Below, one piece after another: positions 18,174-40,295 of a DNA stretch of 64,000 nt. The translations under genes and the position numbers were made by a program. Under the pieces are notes generated by a model. That model was not told where the DNA came from, ran no database searches, and saw nothing but the letters and a program-made list of their open reading frames with translations. The DNA is from Octopus vulgaris. Its lineage: Eukaryota. How positions within the stretch are numbered: the stretch's first letter is position 1; the number at the start of each line of letters is the position of its first letter. Location of the stretch: contig OX597821.1 in NCBI GenBank assembly GCA_951406725.2, positions 70,742,001-70,806,000 on the forward strand, written 5' to 3'.

Positions 18174-18425
18174 CTTTATTTAAAGCAGCAGAAAATTCAA
18201 CAAAATCTGTTACTCTGAGTTTCTCGTTGCCGTTCATCAGACAGTTTTTGCTAGAAAAAACTAGCAAAAATTCTAGCAAAAACTGTCTGATGAACGGCAA
18301 CGAGAAACTCAGAGGAACAGATTTTGTTGAATTTTCTGCTGCTTTAAATAAAGCATATTACTCTACCACTGGTATTTGAGTACTCTTTTTTCCACCTTGT
18401 TTCACATTTATGTGTTTACTCCGGT
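18174..18425 (+). mobile_element. Fold-back HHR element: 83-bp inverted arms (18174-18256 / 18271-18353) plus ~70-nt tail, in (TA)n
   Basis: Arms are reverse complements with one mismatch seen; each holds CTGT-CTGATGA-ACG gcaa CGA-GAA-ACTC a GAG(T/G)-A-ACAG (18283-18320 +, 18207-18244 -). Confidence 0.85.
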
Positions 18426-21400
18426 ATATATATATATATATATATATATGCACTGTAAGTCGGAAGGAATATTCTGTATTTTAAGCTGGATTGAAATCAG
18501 AATCAAAAGGCTTTAAACTAGATTTACTAAAATAATTTGAGCAACACACACACACTCTCTCTTTCTCTTTGTTTTCTCTCTCTCTCTCCCCCCCTCACTG
18601 CAGCTTTATTCATGAAATGGTCCCATAACCTCCAAAAAATAATCGTTGTCCAATGATTATTATGCACAAATTAAATATTTAAATTATGTCTGACGTTATT
18701 GGTTTTCTGTTTAAACCGCTTTGAAGTTGAATGTGTTACGTGTAAGCAACTCTATAAATATGCAAATAGATCGATGTTCTGCAGGAGTTTAAAAGGACAC
18801 CGCGTAATTAAGAATGAAACTGGCAGAAAGGTCGCTTTCCTAAGACGTCGCGTGCCGTACGTTGGTGCGGTGAATTGTGTCATTTAATTTCTTTGATGAA
18901 GTTTACTTCCATTGTTATCCAACATTTCTCTCCTGTTATGGTATTTAGTTTTCAATAAGACAATTTGCAACACCTTTCAGCCATCTCTGTGGCACTACGT
19001 CGAAAATAAGCCATCCTAAATATATATTGTTTATATCGAGGATGTTTCTCTTTACTTTTATGATTCAAATATATTCAAAGTAAGTTTACAAATGTATTTT
19101 AATCTCTAAAAAGACAACTTTTATTTATCTAATTATCCACACATCTTTATCTTTCGATCTATTTCTCGCCTCTCTCTCTCTCTCTCTCTCTATATATATA
19201 TATATATATATATATATATATATATCTTTCCTTCTCAAACCCGTCTCTCTTCCTCTTCTTCATTCATCCACCCAACTCTATACATCTCTATTTTCTTTTC
19301 TCCCTCATCCGCATCTCACCCCGTTCGTAGCCTTCGTATGAAATAAACTTATTTCTTCTCTTTATTCAAACTAATGTAACTATTTTCCTTTATATCTTTC
19401 ACATAAAGAATCTATCTCAATATTTTGACTACTTTTTTCTCTGTTTAAGATTTTAATCCAAATATTTACAAATCCAGCTTCCATCTCTGCTTCTTATATA
19501 TACACATACACATGCAGCCTCCTATGTGTTCCTGTGTGTGTATATAAACGAAACGGGAGCTGTACTTAAATATGCGTGTGTGTGCGCGTGTGTGTGTGTG
19601 TGCGTGTGTGTGTGTGTATTTGTGTATTCACACATACATAATTATCCACCCCTTGGTTATAACACTCCTTTATTCTTCTCTTTACTACTTTTCAACTCTT
19701 CGTCATCCTTCCTTCTTATATCTTTATTATAGGTATTATCATCATCATCATCATCATCATCATCATCATTATCATTATTATTATTATTATTATTATTATT
19801 ATTATTATCTATTTATTTATTTGTTTGTTTGTTCTTAATTTCTTAGTTATAGTTTTTGTGATTTTTTTTCTTTTTTTTTCCTTTCTATCTATGATCTTCT
19901 GCTTACAAAACTTTAAACAGTCTTTCTGTCGCTGTTTAATAGGTCAACTTCCGTTTCAATGCTACACGGGCCGGAAGTACTGCGCACCAAATCTTAAGCA
20001 TAGAGAATTCGGTAGGCACCGGTGAAAGATTTGTATTCTGAGCAATCAATCAACAACTTTTAACAGATGGAACACGGTTCTAGTCACATCCAAATACATA
20101 CATACACACACACACACACATATATATATATATGTGTGTGTGTGTGTGTGTGTGTGTGTGTGTGTGTGTGTGTGTGTGCCGAATTCTATCGACTGATCCT
20201 CAAGGGAGTTAAGTTAGATATAACAAGAAAATATAAACTAAGTACCGTTGCCAAAATCTGTTATTTAGCTGACTAGCATATCTGTTATGATTTCTTGGCT
20301 TACAGTAAACACGTATTTATACTTAGCGGACGCTTAGACGAAACCAAACAGTTGCTGTAATACCAGAAGGTGGATAAATAAACTCTTTTTCTCGAGGAAA
20401 CAAACTTAAATGCAAGCTAGTTATTTGTTGTCTTTGTATCTTTGTGTCTGTATATGTGTGTGTGTGTATGGAGTGAGAGAGAGAGAGAGAGAGAGAGAGA
20501 GAGAGAGAGAGAGAGAGAGTAAACACAAAGCCGGAAGAGAGAATTATTTTATTCGTTTATATATATTTTTTCTTGGGTAAAGATCAGAGATATTTAGATG
20601 GTAGACTTGCAGAGCAACTGGAACAACAAGCGCTGTGGCTAGGGGTAAGTAAGTAAGTAAGTAAGAAGAAGAAGAAGAAGAAGAAGAAGAAGAAGAAGAA
20701 GAAGAAGAAGAAGAAGAAGAAGAAGAAGAAGAAGAAGAAGAAGAAGAAGAAGAAGAAGAAGAAGAAGAAGCAGTCCTTCTCTAACCCCACAGTGTAGGGT
20801 TAAGGGTTTAAGGGAGGTCTGTAGCGACTGTTGAGATCTTATAATGTTAGTCGTGCTGTTGTAGTATTCAACCCCAGGTCCGCTCTGATTCCGTAAACCT
20901 ATGGGCAAAGGCGTTTCTGATGTGGCCATCCCGGTCGTTTTAGAAATCTAAGACTACATTATCCAATGTGTCAAAGTCTGGTTTCATTTCATAGACATTT
21001 GCTTACTATTTGGTTAGTAGGATCAACATCGGAAAGATTCATCCGTTTCAAGATAAGGGGTGGAGGTAGTGGTGGTTGTCATAGTGATAGGTATGTTGGC
21101 GGTTGTCATGGCGACGTGGATATGAGATTGACGGGAAGTAAGATTATTACATCTCCTGACACAGAAAGTCAATTCAGGAGAAGAAAATCATGAGACGATA
21201 AGGTAGTATTTATGTGGTCACGTGGCCAAATCCCTCTCAAATCACGCGTTGACAAGATTGGGTAATATAACGCTAGTAACACTATTAACGTGTGTATGTG
21301 TGTATGTATGTCTCTCTCTCTCTCTCTCTCTCTCTCTCTCTCTGTAATGGGTGTCATATATCCCTATACTTCTGAGACCATAATATCATTATGCAAGACT

Positions 21401-21604
21401 CCCAGCCCTAAACCAATGAACTATTTACAGAAATATAAAATAAAATTCGGCCTCCGAAAGTGGTTCTGTGCTGTAATGGTTCTCTCATACGCCTTACACG
21501 CGGAACACCATTAGCTAGAATATCTATATTGTTCACATAAATATGTATCCGTAATAATTGCACTTATTTTTAAAAAAGCTGTTTTTTTTTTTTATTTAAC
21601 GTCA

Positions 21605-21730
21605 TGTCGACCGCCTTTACGTTCTGAGTTCAAATTCCGCCGAGGTCGACTTTACCTTTCATCATTTCGTGTTCGATAAATTAAGTACCAAATTTCAGGC
21701 CTTGTGCCTACTACTATAAGTAGAAAGGAT
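21605..21730 (+). mobile_element. Partial tRNA-derived SINE (family A, Meta-domain-like)
   Basis: gttctgagttcaaattccgccgaggtcgactttacctttcatc...gataaattaagtacca, same family as 22444 and 50526. Confidence 0.8.
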
Positions 21731-37906: not shown

Positions 37907-39420
37907 TAATGATTATTGTGTTATCGTTTTGTAGGTGTTATCGTTTGTAAACGCCTAGAAAACGACAACAATAATCATTAAGCAAGCAGATATAGGGAGT
38001 GCAATTGTTATAATGGATGCCGAATACTAAAGAGATTTAGTTGAGGACTAATTGAAGGACACGACATTCCACTGTGAAAAACCTTCAAACATCGACCACC
38101 ATATCATGAAAAAAAGTTGATAATCTGATTTCAAAACATTACAGCTCCGTAACCAATTACGAAAGAGATTACAGCAGCAATATCGAACCAAAACTCAGCA
38201 AAGTCTGTGACTTGCCAAAAATACACAAGTCAAAAGAAATTCAACATGCAGTCAAGAAACAGGGAAGCAAGTACATAAAATTACCACATTTGAAGACCTA
38301 AAACTTAGACCTGTTATAGCTGGTCCAGTATGCCCTGTCCACCATCTAAGCAATTCTATTGACATTATTTTAAAAGCATTATGTACCCACATACCTAGTT
38401 TCATCCGGGTTGACATCACTTCCTGCCCTATCTTCACAAAACAACGAAATCGAATTCACTTTTACTTAGCTTTGATGTAGTAAGCTTCTACACCAATATT
38501 CTACATGATTTAGGAATAAAGATGATTGAATCCTGGGTGTAAAACCATAGAGAAATGATTCCTAGTAGATTCACCGTGTCATTTATATAAGACACAGTGA
38601 AACTTATCCTTGAAAATAACATATTCTTGTTCAGGGAACGAGTTTTTCGCCCATTTATGCGAACTCCGTAACGGGATACTTTGAAAAACAACTCTATCAA
38701 AGAATAGAGGAAAGCTATGGCACTGAATTTAGAAAGTGTATTGAAGATGCATGGATGAGATACCTTGATGATTGCTTCATAATCTACACAAAATCTCTAG
38801 TTACTCTGGAAGAATTTAATATCCTCCTGAACAATCTGCACCCAACTCTCAAGTTTGCAAAGGAGATGAGTACTACCAAATTGCCTTTTCTGACGATAAT
38901 TAAAAGTGACACCACCATCACCACAGATATATACTATAAGCATACAGACACGCATCAGTACCGGAAGTTTAAATCGTGCCATCCAACACATACAAACCGC
39001 AATATCCCATACTGCCTAGCCAGAAACATTTGCACCATTGTGGGAGATGTGAATACCAGAGACAAACACCTAATAGCACTCAAAGAATTTCTACCCAAAC
39101 AAAAATACCCATCTCTTCATTTAGAAAATGGCATACAGGGTGCTTTAGAAATACCCATACAATTTAGGGCAAACCCCAAAAAGAGGAAAACAAGAAAAGG
39201 TCATAACATTTATCGTGATACACAATCAGTGTTACCAAAATATCTTTAGCATTGACAAAGCAAACTATTTCGATCATTGTTCAAAGTAATGAATTAAAGG
39301 ATACAATCACAGATCGAGTTATGATTCTAAGTAAAAGACAGCCGAAGAACTTGAAACAATTACTAAAAAAGGGATAAGTATGACCTAAGCAGCAATGACA
39401 AATCATTCATTGTATCTAAA
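37907..39420 (+). mobile_element. Decayed Penelope-like RT fragment with fold-back 5' junction
   Basis: IIIKQADIGSAIVIMD, LPKIHKS, LRPVIAGPVCP, FDVVSFYTNI, WMRYLDDCF, LPFL, DIYYKHTDTHQY..F.SCHP, KRQPKNLKQLL; many stops and frameshifts; no endonuclease seen. Confidence 0.88.
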
Positions 39421-39628
39421 TACATGTCAGTTCATACATAGCGGTCGATATATGAAGAGTACCACTGGTCGATAACTGGTGAAGAATTGTGGACTGTCTG
39501 TCTCCCGTTTGTTTTTACATTCAGGATAAGTTGTCGTCTGTTTATACATTTTTTCATTTATCAAGTAATGGAACACAACACACTGAATTTGTATTAACAA
39601 ATAAGTTTATATATATATATATATATAT

Positions 39629-40295
39629 AATAATATGTTACATTTACTCAATAGTCAAGATAAAACTCTGAGTTTCAGATGCCGAAGTGGAAATCCACAA
39701 CACCATCTCTTCGGTTATCTGGTCATCTGAAAAACTCTATGAAAAAAATACCGTTATATAAAGGGAAATTACTGTGTTATAATTCTGCTCGCGTACCCAC
39801 GTGCGTACTTATACGTCACTATGAAAACGTACACATCTTCACTCGCATTTTTCGCCAAATATATACGCATATATATACAAACTCATACACACACATGCGT
39901 ACCGTAAAAGTTCATACATACGTCTATATACGCACAAGCACAAGAAAAACCATGGTGTGTGTGTATGAGTTTGTATATATATGCGTATATATTTGCGAAA
40001 AATGCGAGTGAAGATGTGTACGTTTTGCTAGTGACGTATAAGTACGCACGTGGGTTCGCGAGCAGAATTATAACACAGTAATTTCCCTTTATATAATGGT
40101 ATTTTTTCATAGCGTTTTTCAGATGGCCAGATAACCGAAGAGATGGTGTCATGGATTTCCACTTCGGTATCTGAAACTCAGAGTTTTATCTTGACTATTG
40201 AGTAAATGTAACATATTATTTTATAGATAAATTTCGTCTATTTACATAATATTGAGGTCTCTTTCTTTCTTTTGTTATCTTACCGTTTTTACCAA
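39629..40295 (+). mobile_element. Fold-back HHR element: ~265-bp inverted arms (39629-39894 / 39955-40220) plus ~75-nt tail, in (TA)n
   Basis: Arms are reverse complements with scattered mismatches; HHR AGATAA-CCGAAGA-GATG...(C/T)ATC-T-GAA-ACTC a GAGT-T-TTATCT at 40129-40191 (+) and 39658-39720 (-). Confidence 0.85.

Follow-up and report, generated by a model that had tools for sequence, protein, structure and literature searches.

Hammerhead-bearing fold-back insertions in an Octopus vulgaris locus as probable products of Penelope-like element integration

Three fold-back insertions and a decayed fourth

The window analyzed here, a 64,000-nucleotide (nt) stretch of Octopus vulgaris contig OX597821.1, contains three insertions of different sequence, designated E1, the large element and E2, in which two inverted arms lie head to head and one arm continues outward into a unique tail. 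The original prediction had described this common layout and traced the small elements to the integration reaction of a Penelope-like element (PLE). Sequence comparison and a hammerhead scan bore out the arms, the tails and their coordinates in all three insertions.

E1 is the smallest of them. Its tail-less arm on the minus strand (18174..18256, 83 nt) carries an intact predicted minimal hammerhead, extending from the core at 18240 to the GUA cleavage triplet at 18211, and its tailed arm on the plus strand (18271..18353, 83 nt) carries a hammerhead predicted to be inactive, with G replacing U16.1 at 18315. The two arms differ at a single position over 83 nt. Between them lies a 14-nt centre (18257..18270) that partially repeats the inner end of E1's own arm and is absent from the other 29 aligned copies. 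The 71-nt tail (18354..18424, plus strand) continues, in full-length tandem copies, into the 5′ leader of a 727-amino-acid (aa) PLE frame, and (TA)n flanks the insertion on both sides.

The large element is a 5′-truncated PLE of 4.2 kb (26216-30380). Its tail of about 55-57 nt (26216..26270, minus strand) is followed by a 971-nt arm comprising the 3′ untranslated region and the pseudo-long terminal repeat (pLTR; 26271..27241, minus strand), with a G3/C8 hammerhead whose core runs from 26395 to 26360. The 5′-truncated frame (27374..29413, minus strand) encodes a reverse transcriptase (RT), a CxxxCxxC linker and a GIY-YIG-type endonuclease, and is 99% identical to a longer frame in another locus (L334). 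The inverted tail-less arm (29414..30380, plus strand) bears a second G3/C8 hammerhead at 30256-30291, and matches the first arm with 99.6% identity over 971 nt. At its junction lie a short templated repeat and a 3-nt microhomology.

In E2, the tail-less arm on the minus strand (39629..39955) contains a U4C hammerhead with its core from 39714 to 39664, and is paired from 39629 to 39895 and unpaired from 39896 to 39955. This 60-nt "spacer" is in fact further left-arm sequence, corresponding to the upstream sequence of the family (compare L201). The tailed arm (39956..40220, plus strand) carries a U4C hammerhead at 40135-40185, and the tail of about 75 nt (40221..40295, plus strand) continues towards a 717-aa PLE frame in tandem copies. 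The paired arms, of about 265 nt, are identical at 259 of 269 aligned positions, with a few flanking bases counted in.

A probable older fourth insertion had also been proposed at 25800..26100 (plus strand; E4). It is an old, decayed fold-back related to the 3′ end of the large element, matching it at 139 of 174 aligned positions, with arms complementary at 79 of 121; no hammerhead in it passes the relaxed scan described below.

Hammerhead motifs in the arms

Hammerhead positions are numbered according to general convention, and the terms initiator, TATA box and strong-stop DNA are used in their general sense. The window was scanned for minimal hammerheads with an unpaired base permitted beside stem II, and 10 shuffles served as the control. 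This relaxed scan gave 8 matches in the window against 0-2 per shuffle, while the strict scan gave none in the window because it disallows that unpaired base. Hammerheads pass in both arms of E2, with a U4C core, and in both arms of the large element, in which the C3/G8 pair is swapped to G3/C8. A hammerhead in both arms of every insertion, as originally claimed, therefore holds for these two elements but not for E1, whose right arm fails because of the G for U in its cleavage triplet. GUA is retained in the tailed arm of the other 29 of 30 aligned E1 copies. Among the Rfam matches listed (150 of 388), there was no hammerhead.

The G3/C8 core (26360-26395, 30256-30291 and 46508-46544 in the window) is found throughout the family of the large element. 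A C3G/G8C double change has been reported to restore hammerhead cleavage in part (PMC11167929). Rfam also returned weak microRNA matches at E1 and E2, below threshold.

Parent families of the three elements

Copies and parents were sought across the 2.8-Gb genome, with copy numbers taken from exact sequence patterns; the reversed patterns used as controls gave 0 matches. The E1 family has 4874 tail junctions and 4327 tail-less ends joined to TATATA, the E2 family 4146 hammerheads, and the family of the large element 5414 tail junctions. A first-look similarity search with E1 gave 756 candidates, of which the 40 scored are full-length look-alikes at 92-97%, E1 itself excluded; this candidate set is biased to E1's own shape.

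Autonomous PLEs ending in the same tails, which the original prediction had proposed to look for, were found for all three families. Those that share E1's termini (L064 and L192) have a unit of 3356 bp with a 727-aa frame, preceded by the hammerhead and tail in tandem copies, and in L064 the PLE RT-endonuclease frame terminates in E1's termini. A protein search returned many near-identical copies of the E1 parent, many with an open 727-aa frame and many as inverted pairs, and one E1-type hairpin has arms of 1.6 kb (L061). Dozens of copies share with the frame at L192:5372-7552 the same 727-aa length and an identical score. The E1 parent represents a very young PLE family of the Hydra type, and probably an active one. 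The E2 parent (L327/L328) has a 2580-bp unit and a 717-aa frame with 45% identity to that of E1's parent, and the E2 subfamily of the window is joined to an 89%-identical frame fragment in L206. The parent of the large element's family has the longer frame in L334. Thus the small elements very probably derive from PLE integration, and all of the insertions are best explained as 5′-truncated head-to-head copies of three autonomous PLE families.

RT and, at the C terminus, a GIY-YIG endonuclease lie in one frame, as judged from motifs read in the proteins of the large element (P0001) and the E1 parent (P0123). Pfam gave no family match for either protein. Among the 120 relatives listed for the protein of the large element, the top one with a name comes from Octopus vulgaris, at 58%; the relatives are named as RT-domain proteins, with PF01541 in one and PF00078 in another. 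Partial tandems form pLTRs in L192-L197, L199 and L200, in L327/L328 and in L334. The pLTR carries a hammerhead motif, an inverted 5′-truncated copy adjoins it and the tail is one-sided, features that appear to be those of endonuclease-containing (EN+) PLEs.

The motifs of the E1 parent include RWK, DKT, a CxCX5C linker, and the CxxC and CxH that surround the conserved residues E and N. In the E2 parent, DKT, CxCX5C, CxxC and CxH were read, the RWK region lying outside the sequence inspected. On these motifs, both parents would belong to the Hydra clade; their units of 3.36 kb (E1) and 2.58 kb (E2) stand beside a clade guide value of "generally <3 kb". The CxxxCxxC of the large element fits the CX2-5CxxC pre-endonuclease linker of the Neptune and Nematis clades (PMC8557442), and the large element is thus best described as a putative Neptune/Nematis-type PLE, the two clades being taken jointly.

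The E1 and E2 families insert in (TA)n. The expectation that every insertion would lie in (TA)n stands for these two, but the family of the large element also inserts in plain AT-rich DNA with target duplications, for example at 46360-46560. In 30 sampled loci of that family, most copies are short hairpins or solos, and several have target duplications of 9-14 bp. A search for the continuation of the E1 parent through copies with a base other than T after the tail turned up TA-flanked copies only, in the 30 loci inspected out of 110. No spliced joint or transcript start was found in four contig sets guessed to be RNA, which as contigs show neither level nor strand.

Two further features of the parents were observed. 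A short leader intron may overlap the tail in E1's parent (L192:5300-5375), where donor-, branch- and acceptor-like motifs were noted by eye. In addition, L327-L328 (G000:C1:57206000-57225000) is an array of several 2.58-kb tandem units followed by inverted units, with one tailed and one tail-less end, both in (TA)n, which reproduces the hairpin layout at a scale of about 15 kb.

Inner ends vary while outer ends are fixed

The E1 end map was drawn on a natural copy from the first 70 tail junctions by position (30 and 40 loci). One junction was dropped as the other end of its neighbor, and three second arms belonging to neighboring insertions were excluded. In the remaining 69 position-ordered loci, 120 inner ends are spread between -8 and -2501, counted from the start of the tail, while the outer ends are fixed. 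Arm lengths form a continuum up to kilobases, with open reading frames in both arms. Similarly, when neighbors within 6 kb or less were recorded for the first 100 E2 hammerheads, 27 pairs were head to head (36-3921 nt apart), 7 were in tandem and 1 was tail to tail. The centre of E1 is unique among 30 aligned copies, and the centres contain short templated repeats of the arm. Since the inner breakpoints vary with fixed outer ends and a fixed tail, the elements are, very probably, one-off PLE insertion products rather than self-copying hairpins or miniature inverted-repeat transposable elements (MITEs). It is likely that each hairpin was assembled at its own insertion site and not copied from an earlier hairpin.

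The original prediction had allowed for a non-autonomous class of ribozyme hairpins, in which an entire retrozyme-like hairpin RNA would be reverse-transcribed by the PLE protein. The hundreds of near-full-length E1 look-alikes in the first-look search would fit such a class, as would the recurrence of one clean centre, the commonest among the top E1 matches, at 43 loci; furthermore, a PLE promoter can be internal (PMC8557442), so that single short arms could be transcribed. These 43 loci, however, are set against 4874 tailed and 4327 tail-less ends, and recurrent centres are to be expected wherever both arms stop at one base. The variation of centres between copies, the continuum of arm lengths to kilobases with frames in both arms, and the presence of the main subfamily variants of short copies in read-through copies as well all argue against a copied hairpin. 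No inversion breakpoint was shared by many of the aligned and mapped copies, nor did the small elements form the head-to-tail tandem hammerhead units of retrozymes, being head-to-head pairs or solos. Self-propagation of the hairpin as a unit is thus largely refuted, a claim that leaves aside the re-mobilization of single short arms, and we consider this class very improbable.

That the small elements might be mistaken for MITEs was a sound warning, for they are short, abundant inverted repeats with TA flanks. A MITE-like DNA transposon targeting (TA)n is nevertheless scarcely credible and was rejected. One end of each element is a unique tail rather than a terminal inverted repeat, the elements differ in length, target duplications range from about 9 to 14 bp, and the termini are those of RT-encoding elements; a uniform length, a fixed-size duplication and inverted repeats at both termini were not found.

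One tail, two arms

In 51 E1 pairs chosen because one arm has a tail, the second arm has part of the tail in a single case; 15 further E1 loci yielded no second arm, some being too short for the search. In the family of the large element, 15 of 30 loci with hairpins that start with an extra G (described below) could be classified, and all 15 have exactly one tail. Hairpins in which both arms have a tail, whole or partial, are rare and were seen in L031/L032, L004 and L066. The tail had been predicted to sit on the arm whose hammerhead reads in sense. Its one-sidedness and the head-to-head polarity of neighboring pairs (27 against 1 tail-to-tail in E2) agree with this prediction, but the sense-arm placement is partly mere geometry, because in a head-to-head pair any outward extension lies 3′ of the sense-reading arm.

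Either arm can be the longer. In the 51 E1 pairs, the tail-less arm is longer in 17, the tailed arm in 10, and the two are within 5 nt of each other in 24; among the 15 G-start hairpins, 9 have a tail-less and 6 a tailed complete arm. At the same time, the two arms of a hairpin agree at subfamily sites in 69/69, 66/69, 62/65 and 53/57 rows, where 34.6, 46.1, 44.5 and 38.7 would be expected if the arms were independent. These rows include top-match loci and about three repeats, and the fully concordant site is one at which the variants stand at 50:50.

Such concordance would also follow from a single priming event, either with subsequent DNA snap-back or with self-priming on an antisense template (PMC3846280), the tail being trimmed or added during resolution. 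The short templated arm repeats in the centres are compatible with this route, and many of the G junctions are consistent with a loop of 5-20 nt that a C:G pair closes. However, the tail-less arm extends further 5′ than the tailed arm in the 17 E1 pairs noted above, and in 9 of the 15 G-start hairpins it is the shorter arm that has the tail. Barring later deletions, neither arm is therefore a plain copy of the other, and a single priming with snap-back is improbable; plain snap-back alone, one of the routes first proposed, does not account for hairpins in which the tail is missing from the longer arm.

A pile-up of inner ends and an extra G

The inner ends are not spread evenly. They accumulate at an initiator-like site that lies 17-22 nt upstream of the core of the hammerhead. 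In the E1 map, 44 of the 120 ends lie at -78..-88 and 18 lie beyond; genome-wide, 4805 E1 arms extend to -81, 1909 to -87 and 1418 to about -160, the count at -87 being lowered somewhat by subfamily variants that the exact patterns miss. In the family of the large element, 17 of 46 ends from 30 loci fall at -143..-149 and none beyond. Arms that read through do exist in this family (the window's own element, and 9 of 16 loci with C before the pile-up). In E2 the ends are clustered more loosely, at -95..-105. In all six contexts compared, the pile-up base is an A after two pyrimidines, and solo copies with target duplications start at the same base (L083, L089, L272).

The base that precedes the pile-up is also distinctive. 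In the family of the large element, it is G in 825 matches and A in 126, where the parent has C or T, and the parent's upstream sequence is present in none of the 30 G loci. At a control position three bases inside, there is no G excess (G 16, A 43 and C 41 in the first 100 of 103 matches, counted by hand). An extra G marks the copying of the cap in full-length L1 insertions (PMC11702581), and it is likely that the pile-up with its extra G marks the capped start of the element RNA.

Two other explanations of the site were tried and rejected. A 3′ splice site was suggested by the AG present in all three families, but the arms include this AG and some upstream bases, and no upstream exon was seen. 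Arms ending at the hammerhead cleavage site (-37 in E1) would form a pile-up there, yet only 2 of the 120 ends lie at -35..-37.

A proposed two-ended integration reaction

The one-sided tail, the finding that either arm may be longer, and the concordance of the arms are together consistent with each of the two target ends having primed on the same RNA. In the reaction that we propose, the PLE protein would nick a (TA)n or AT-rich target on each strand, and the two target 3′ ends would prime cDNA on one RNA, at two internal sites 55-75 nt apart whose separation would form the tail. Both cDNAs would then extend towards the 5′ end of the RNA. The pile-up and the extra G are in keeping, in turn, with a run-off at the capped start and with joining through the added C: with priming at the copy of the sites near the RNA start, the cDNA would gain a C on running off the capped end, about 85-200 nt further on, and this run-off end would fold back or anneal to its partner through 1-4 nt of homology, so that the arms are joined head to head. 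On a longer-than-unit template, priming at the sites' downstream copy would give long arms. Both hammerheads would be passengers of the duplicated pLTR.

The main outline, double priming on one RNA as read from the genomic copies, is in our judgment somewhat on the probable side. The full version is put forward more tentatively, its chances falling short of even. It would comprise a two-ended reaction on one RNA with one tail-bounding site for each target end, hairpins as strong-stop-like run-offs from a capped start joined via the cap-derived C, and a full-length template that is multimeric, circular or strand-transferred.

Several observations weigh against this account. At a control position two bases inside the pile-up, the first 100 of 292 matches (a hand count) include about 55 G, 32 C and 13 T; this excess probably stems from TGC microhomology, and junction preferences alone can thus enrich G. 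In the 30 G loci, the opposite arm could have supplied the G in 11 and the target in 1, neither could in 5, and 13 are unclassified. The signal is weaker in the E1 family, with 27 G, 13 A and 60 T in the first 100 of 983 matches, again by hand. The family of the large element and the E2 subfamily of the window have a TATA-like box at about -30, which two other subfamilies lack. Furthermore, none of the 20 full-length long-frame copies begins at -78..-88: 14 read past the pile-up (-97 to -1404) and the other 6 start at -38 or later, and it is for this reason that a multimeric, circular or strand-transferred template has to be assumed. The asymmetry and concordance of the arms could partly post-date insertion, through palindrome deletion and gene conversion. 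Finally, an assay of an anole PLE gave no difference in start site between the strands (PMC11167929).

Some of these points would equally suit a pile-up that is not a capped end but a template boundary or pause, set as in telomerase by a protein-bound hammerhead region, with the G arising from junction microhomology. The absence of full-length copies that start at the pile-up, the 12 of 30 loci in which partner arm or target could supply the G, and the G excess at one control position are in keeping with such a boundary, as is the similar distance of the pile-up from the core in all three families. Yet the solo copies with target duplications start at the same base, that base is A after two pyrimidines wherever compared, and the ratio of G to A is 825:126 where the parent has C or T but 16:43 three bases away. 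A template boundary is therefore regarded as unlikely, and run-off at a capped start is retained as the preferred explanation of the pile-up.

Relation to known elements

The layout itself is already known, and E1, the large element and E2 are new families of PLE insertion products. An inverted pLTR, an optional 31-bp tail and head-to-head junction palindromes, read as self-priming, have been described (PMC3846280). An inverted copy with a one-sided tail is regarded as the typical PLE unit, with (TA)n targets and a start site inside the pLTR (PMC8557442), and inverted pLTRs are listed in a curation guide (PMC8969392). The present elements resemble the EN+ PLE unit of these sources in the head-to-head copy, the tail at one end, the partial tandems, the pLTR hammerhead, the microsatellite targets and the variable target duplications. 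They differ in that the tails are 55-76 nt long, compared with 30-40 in the published accounts, and in that two of the three families are mostly reduced to the pLTR-and-tail region. For the pile-up of inner ends with an extra G, no counterpart was found in the available portions of these accounts; nor did literature searches, whose coverage was incomplete and which are thus not proof of absence, bring to light any description of a cap-G or strong-stop product in PLEs.

The Hydra clade (PMC8557442, section 11) shares the motifs, the hammerhead and the (TA)n targets with the small elements' parents, RWK being seen in that of E1, whose 3.36-kb unit exceeds the clade's usual size; the section names Mollusca but no species. 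Minimal hammerheads occur in pLTRs, and in Schistosoma dual motifs on opposite strands, about 100-700 bp apart, have been ascribed to truncated PLEs (PMC4209133). These appear to be the same object, with opposed type-I minimal hammerheads, a palindromic helix III and an unpaired base before stem II, although the core variants are U3/A8 there and U4C and G3/C8 here. Non-LTR retrozymes are likewise non-coding PLE derivatives with type-I hammerheads, but are arranged as head-to-tail tandems (bioRxiv 10.64898/2026.07.22.740005).

The closest biochemical parallel is the anole Poseidon element PAc (PMC11167929), in which the tail corresponds to the gap between two RT start sites, so that the predicted reading of the tail as an offset between two priming sites has a published precedent. 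In that system, as proposed here, two internal start sites bound the tail, both strands of an AT-rich target are nicked and extended, and the hammerhead is dispensable. The main text of that study leaves the inverted arms unexplained, and in contrast to its lack of a strand difference, the two ends of the present insertions almost always use different sites. Twin priming in L1 (PMC11702581) also involves two target ends priming on one RNA, but copies two different parts of it, whereas both arms here copy the same part.

As the class of element follows the textbook PLE layout, the value of these insertions lies in their junction statistics. Three young, high-copy families record, in statistical form, a reaction of which the later steps are called unknown in the anole study (PMC11167929). 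The one-tail rule, the arm concordance, the pile-up and the extra G amount to concrete predictions for the existing in vitro system, in which the near-identical 727-aa and 717-aa frames would supply candidate Hydra-clade proteins. If the proposed reaction is true, both the start of transcription and the steps missing from the PLE cycle are recorded in thousands of insertions. The short hairpins also pose an annotation risk, since they may be mislabelled as MITEs or microRNA precursors.

Other features of the window

A solo, non-hairpin copy of the large element's end lies at 46360..46560 on the minus strand. It has 87% identity, retains a hammerhead (46508-46544) and is flanked by a 12-bp target duplication (46348-46359 and 46561-46572) at a site that is not (TA)n.

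Another repeat family with a minimal hammerhead gave matches at 25631 and 30772 (30746-30772, minus strand), adjoining TA runs. An inverted match of 94% between 25581-25781 (plus strand) and 33965-34165 (minus strand) belongs to the same family, which is probably another PLE end. At least four insertions are gathered in the TA tract at 25760-30650.

Elsewhere, an 882-aa open frame with RT and zf-RVT domains (5887-8535, plus strand) directly follows an (AAT/AAC)n run. Its C-terminal stretch resembles a restriction-like endonuclease, and a relative is present in L062. The frame resembles a microsatellite-targeting non-LTR element of what we take to be the R4/Dong type.

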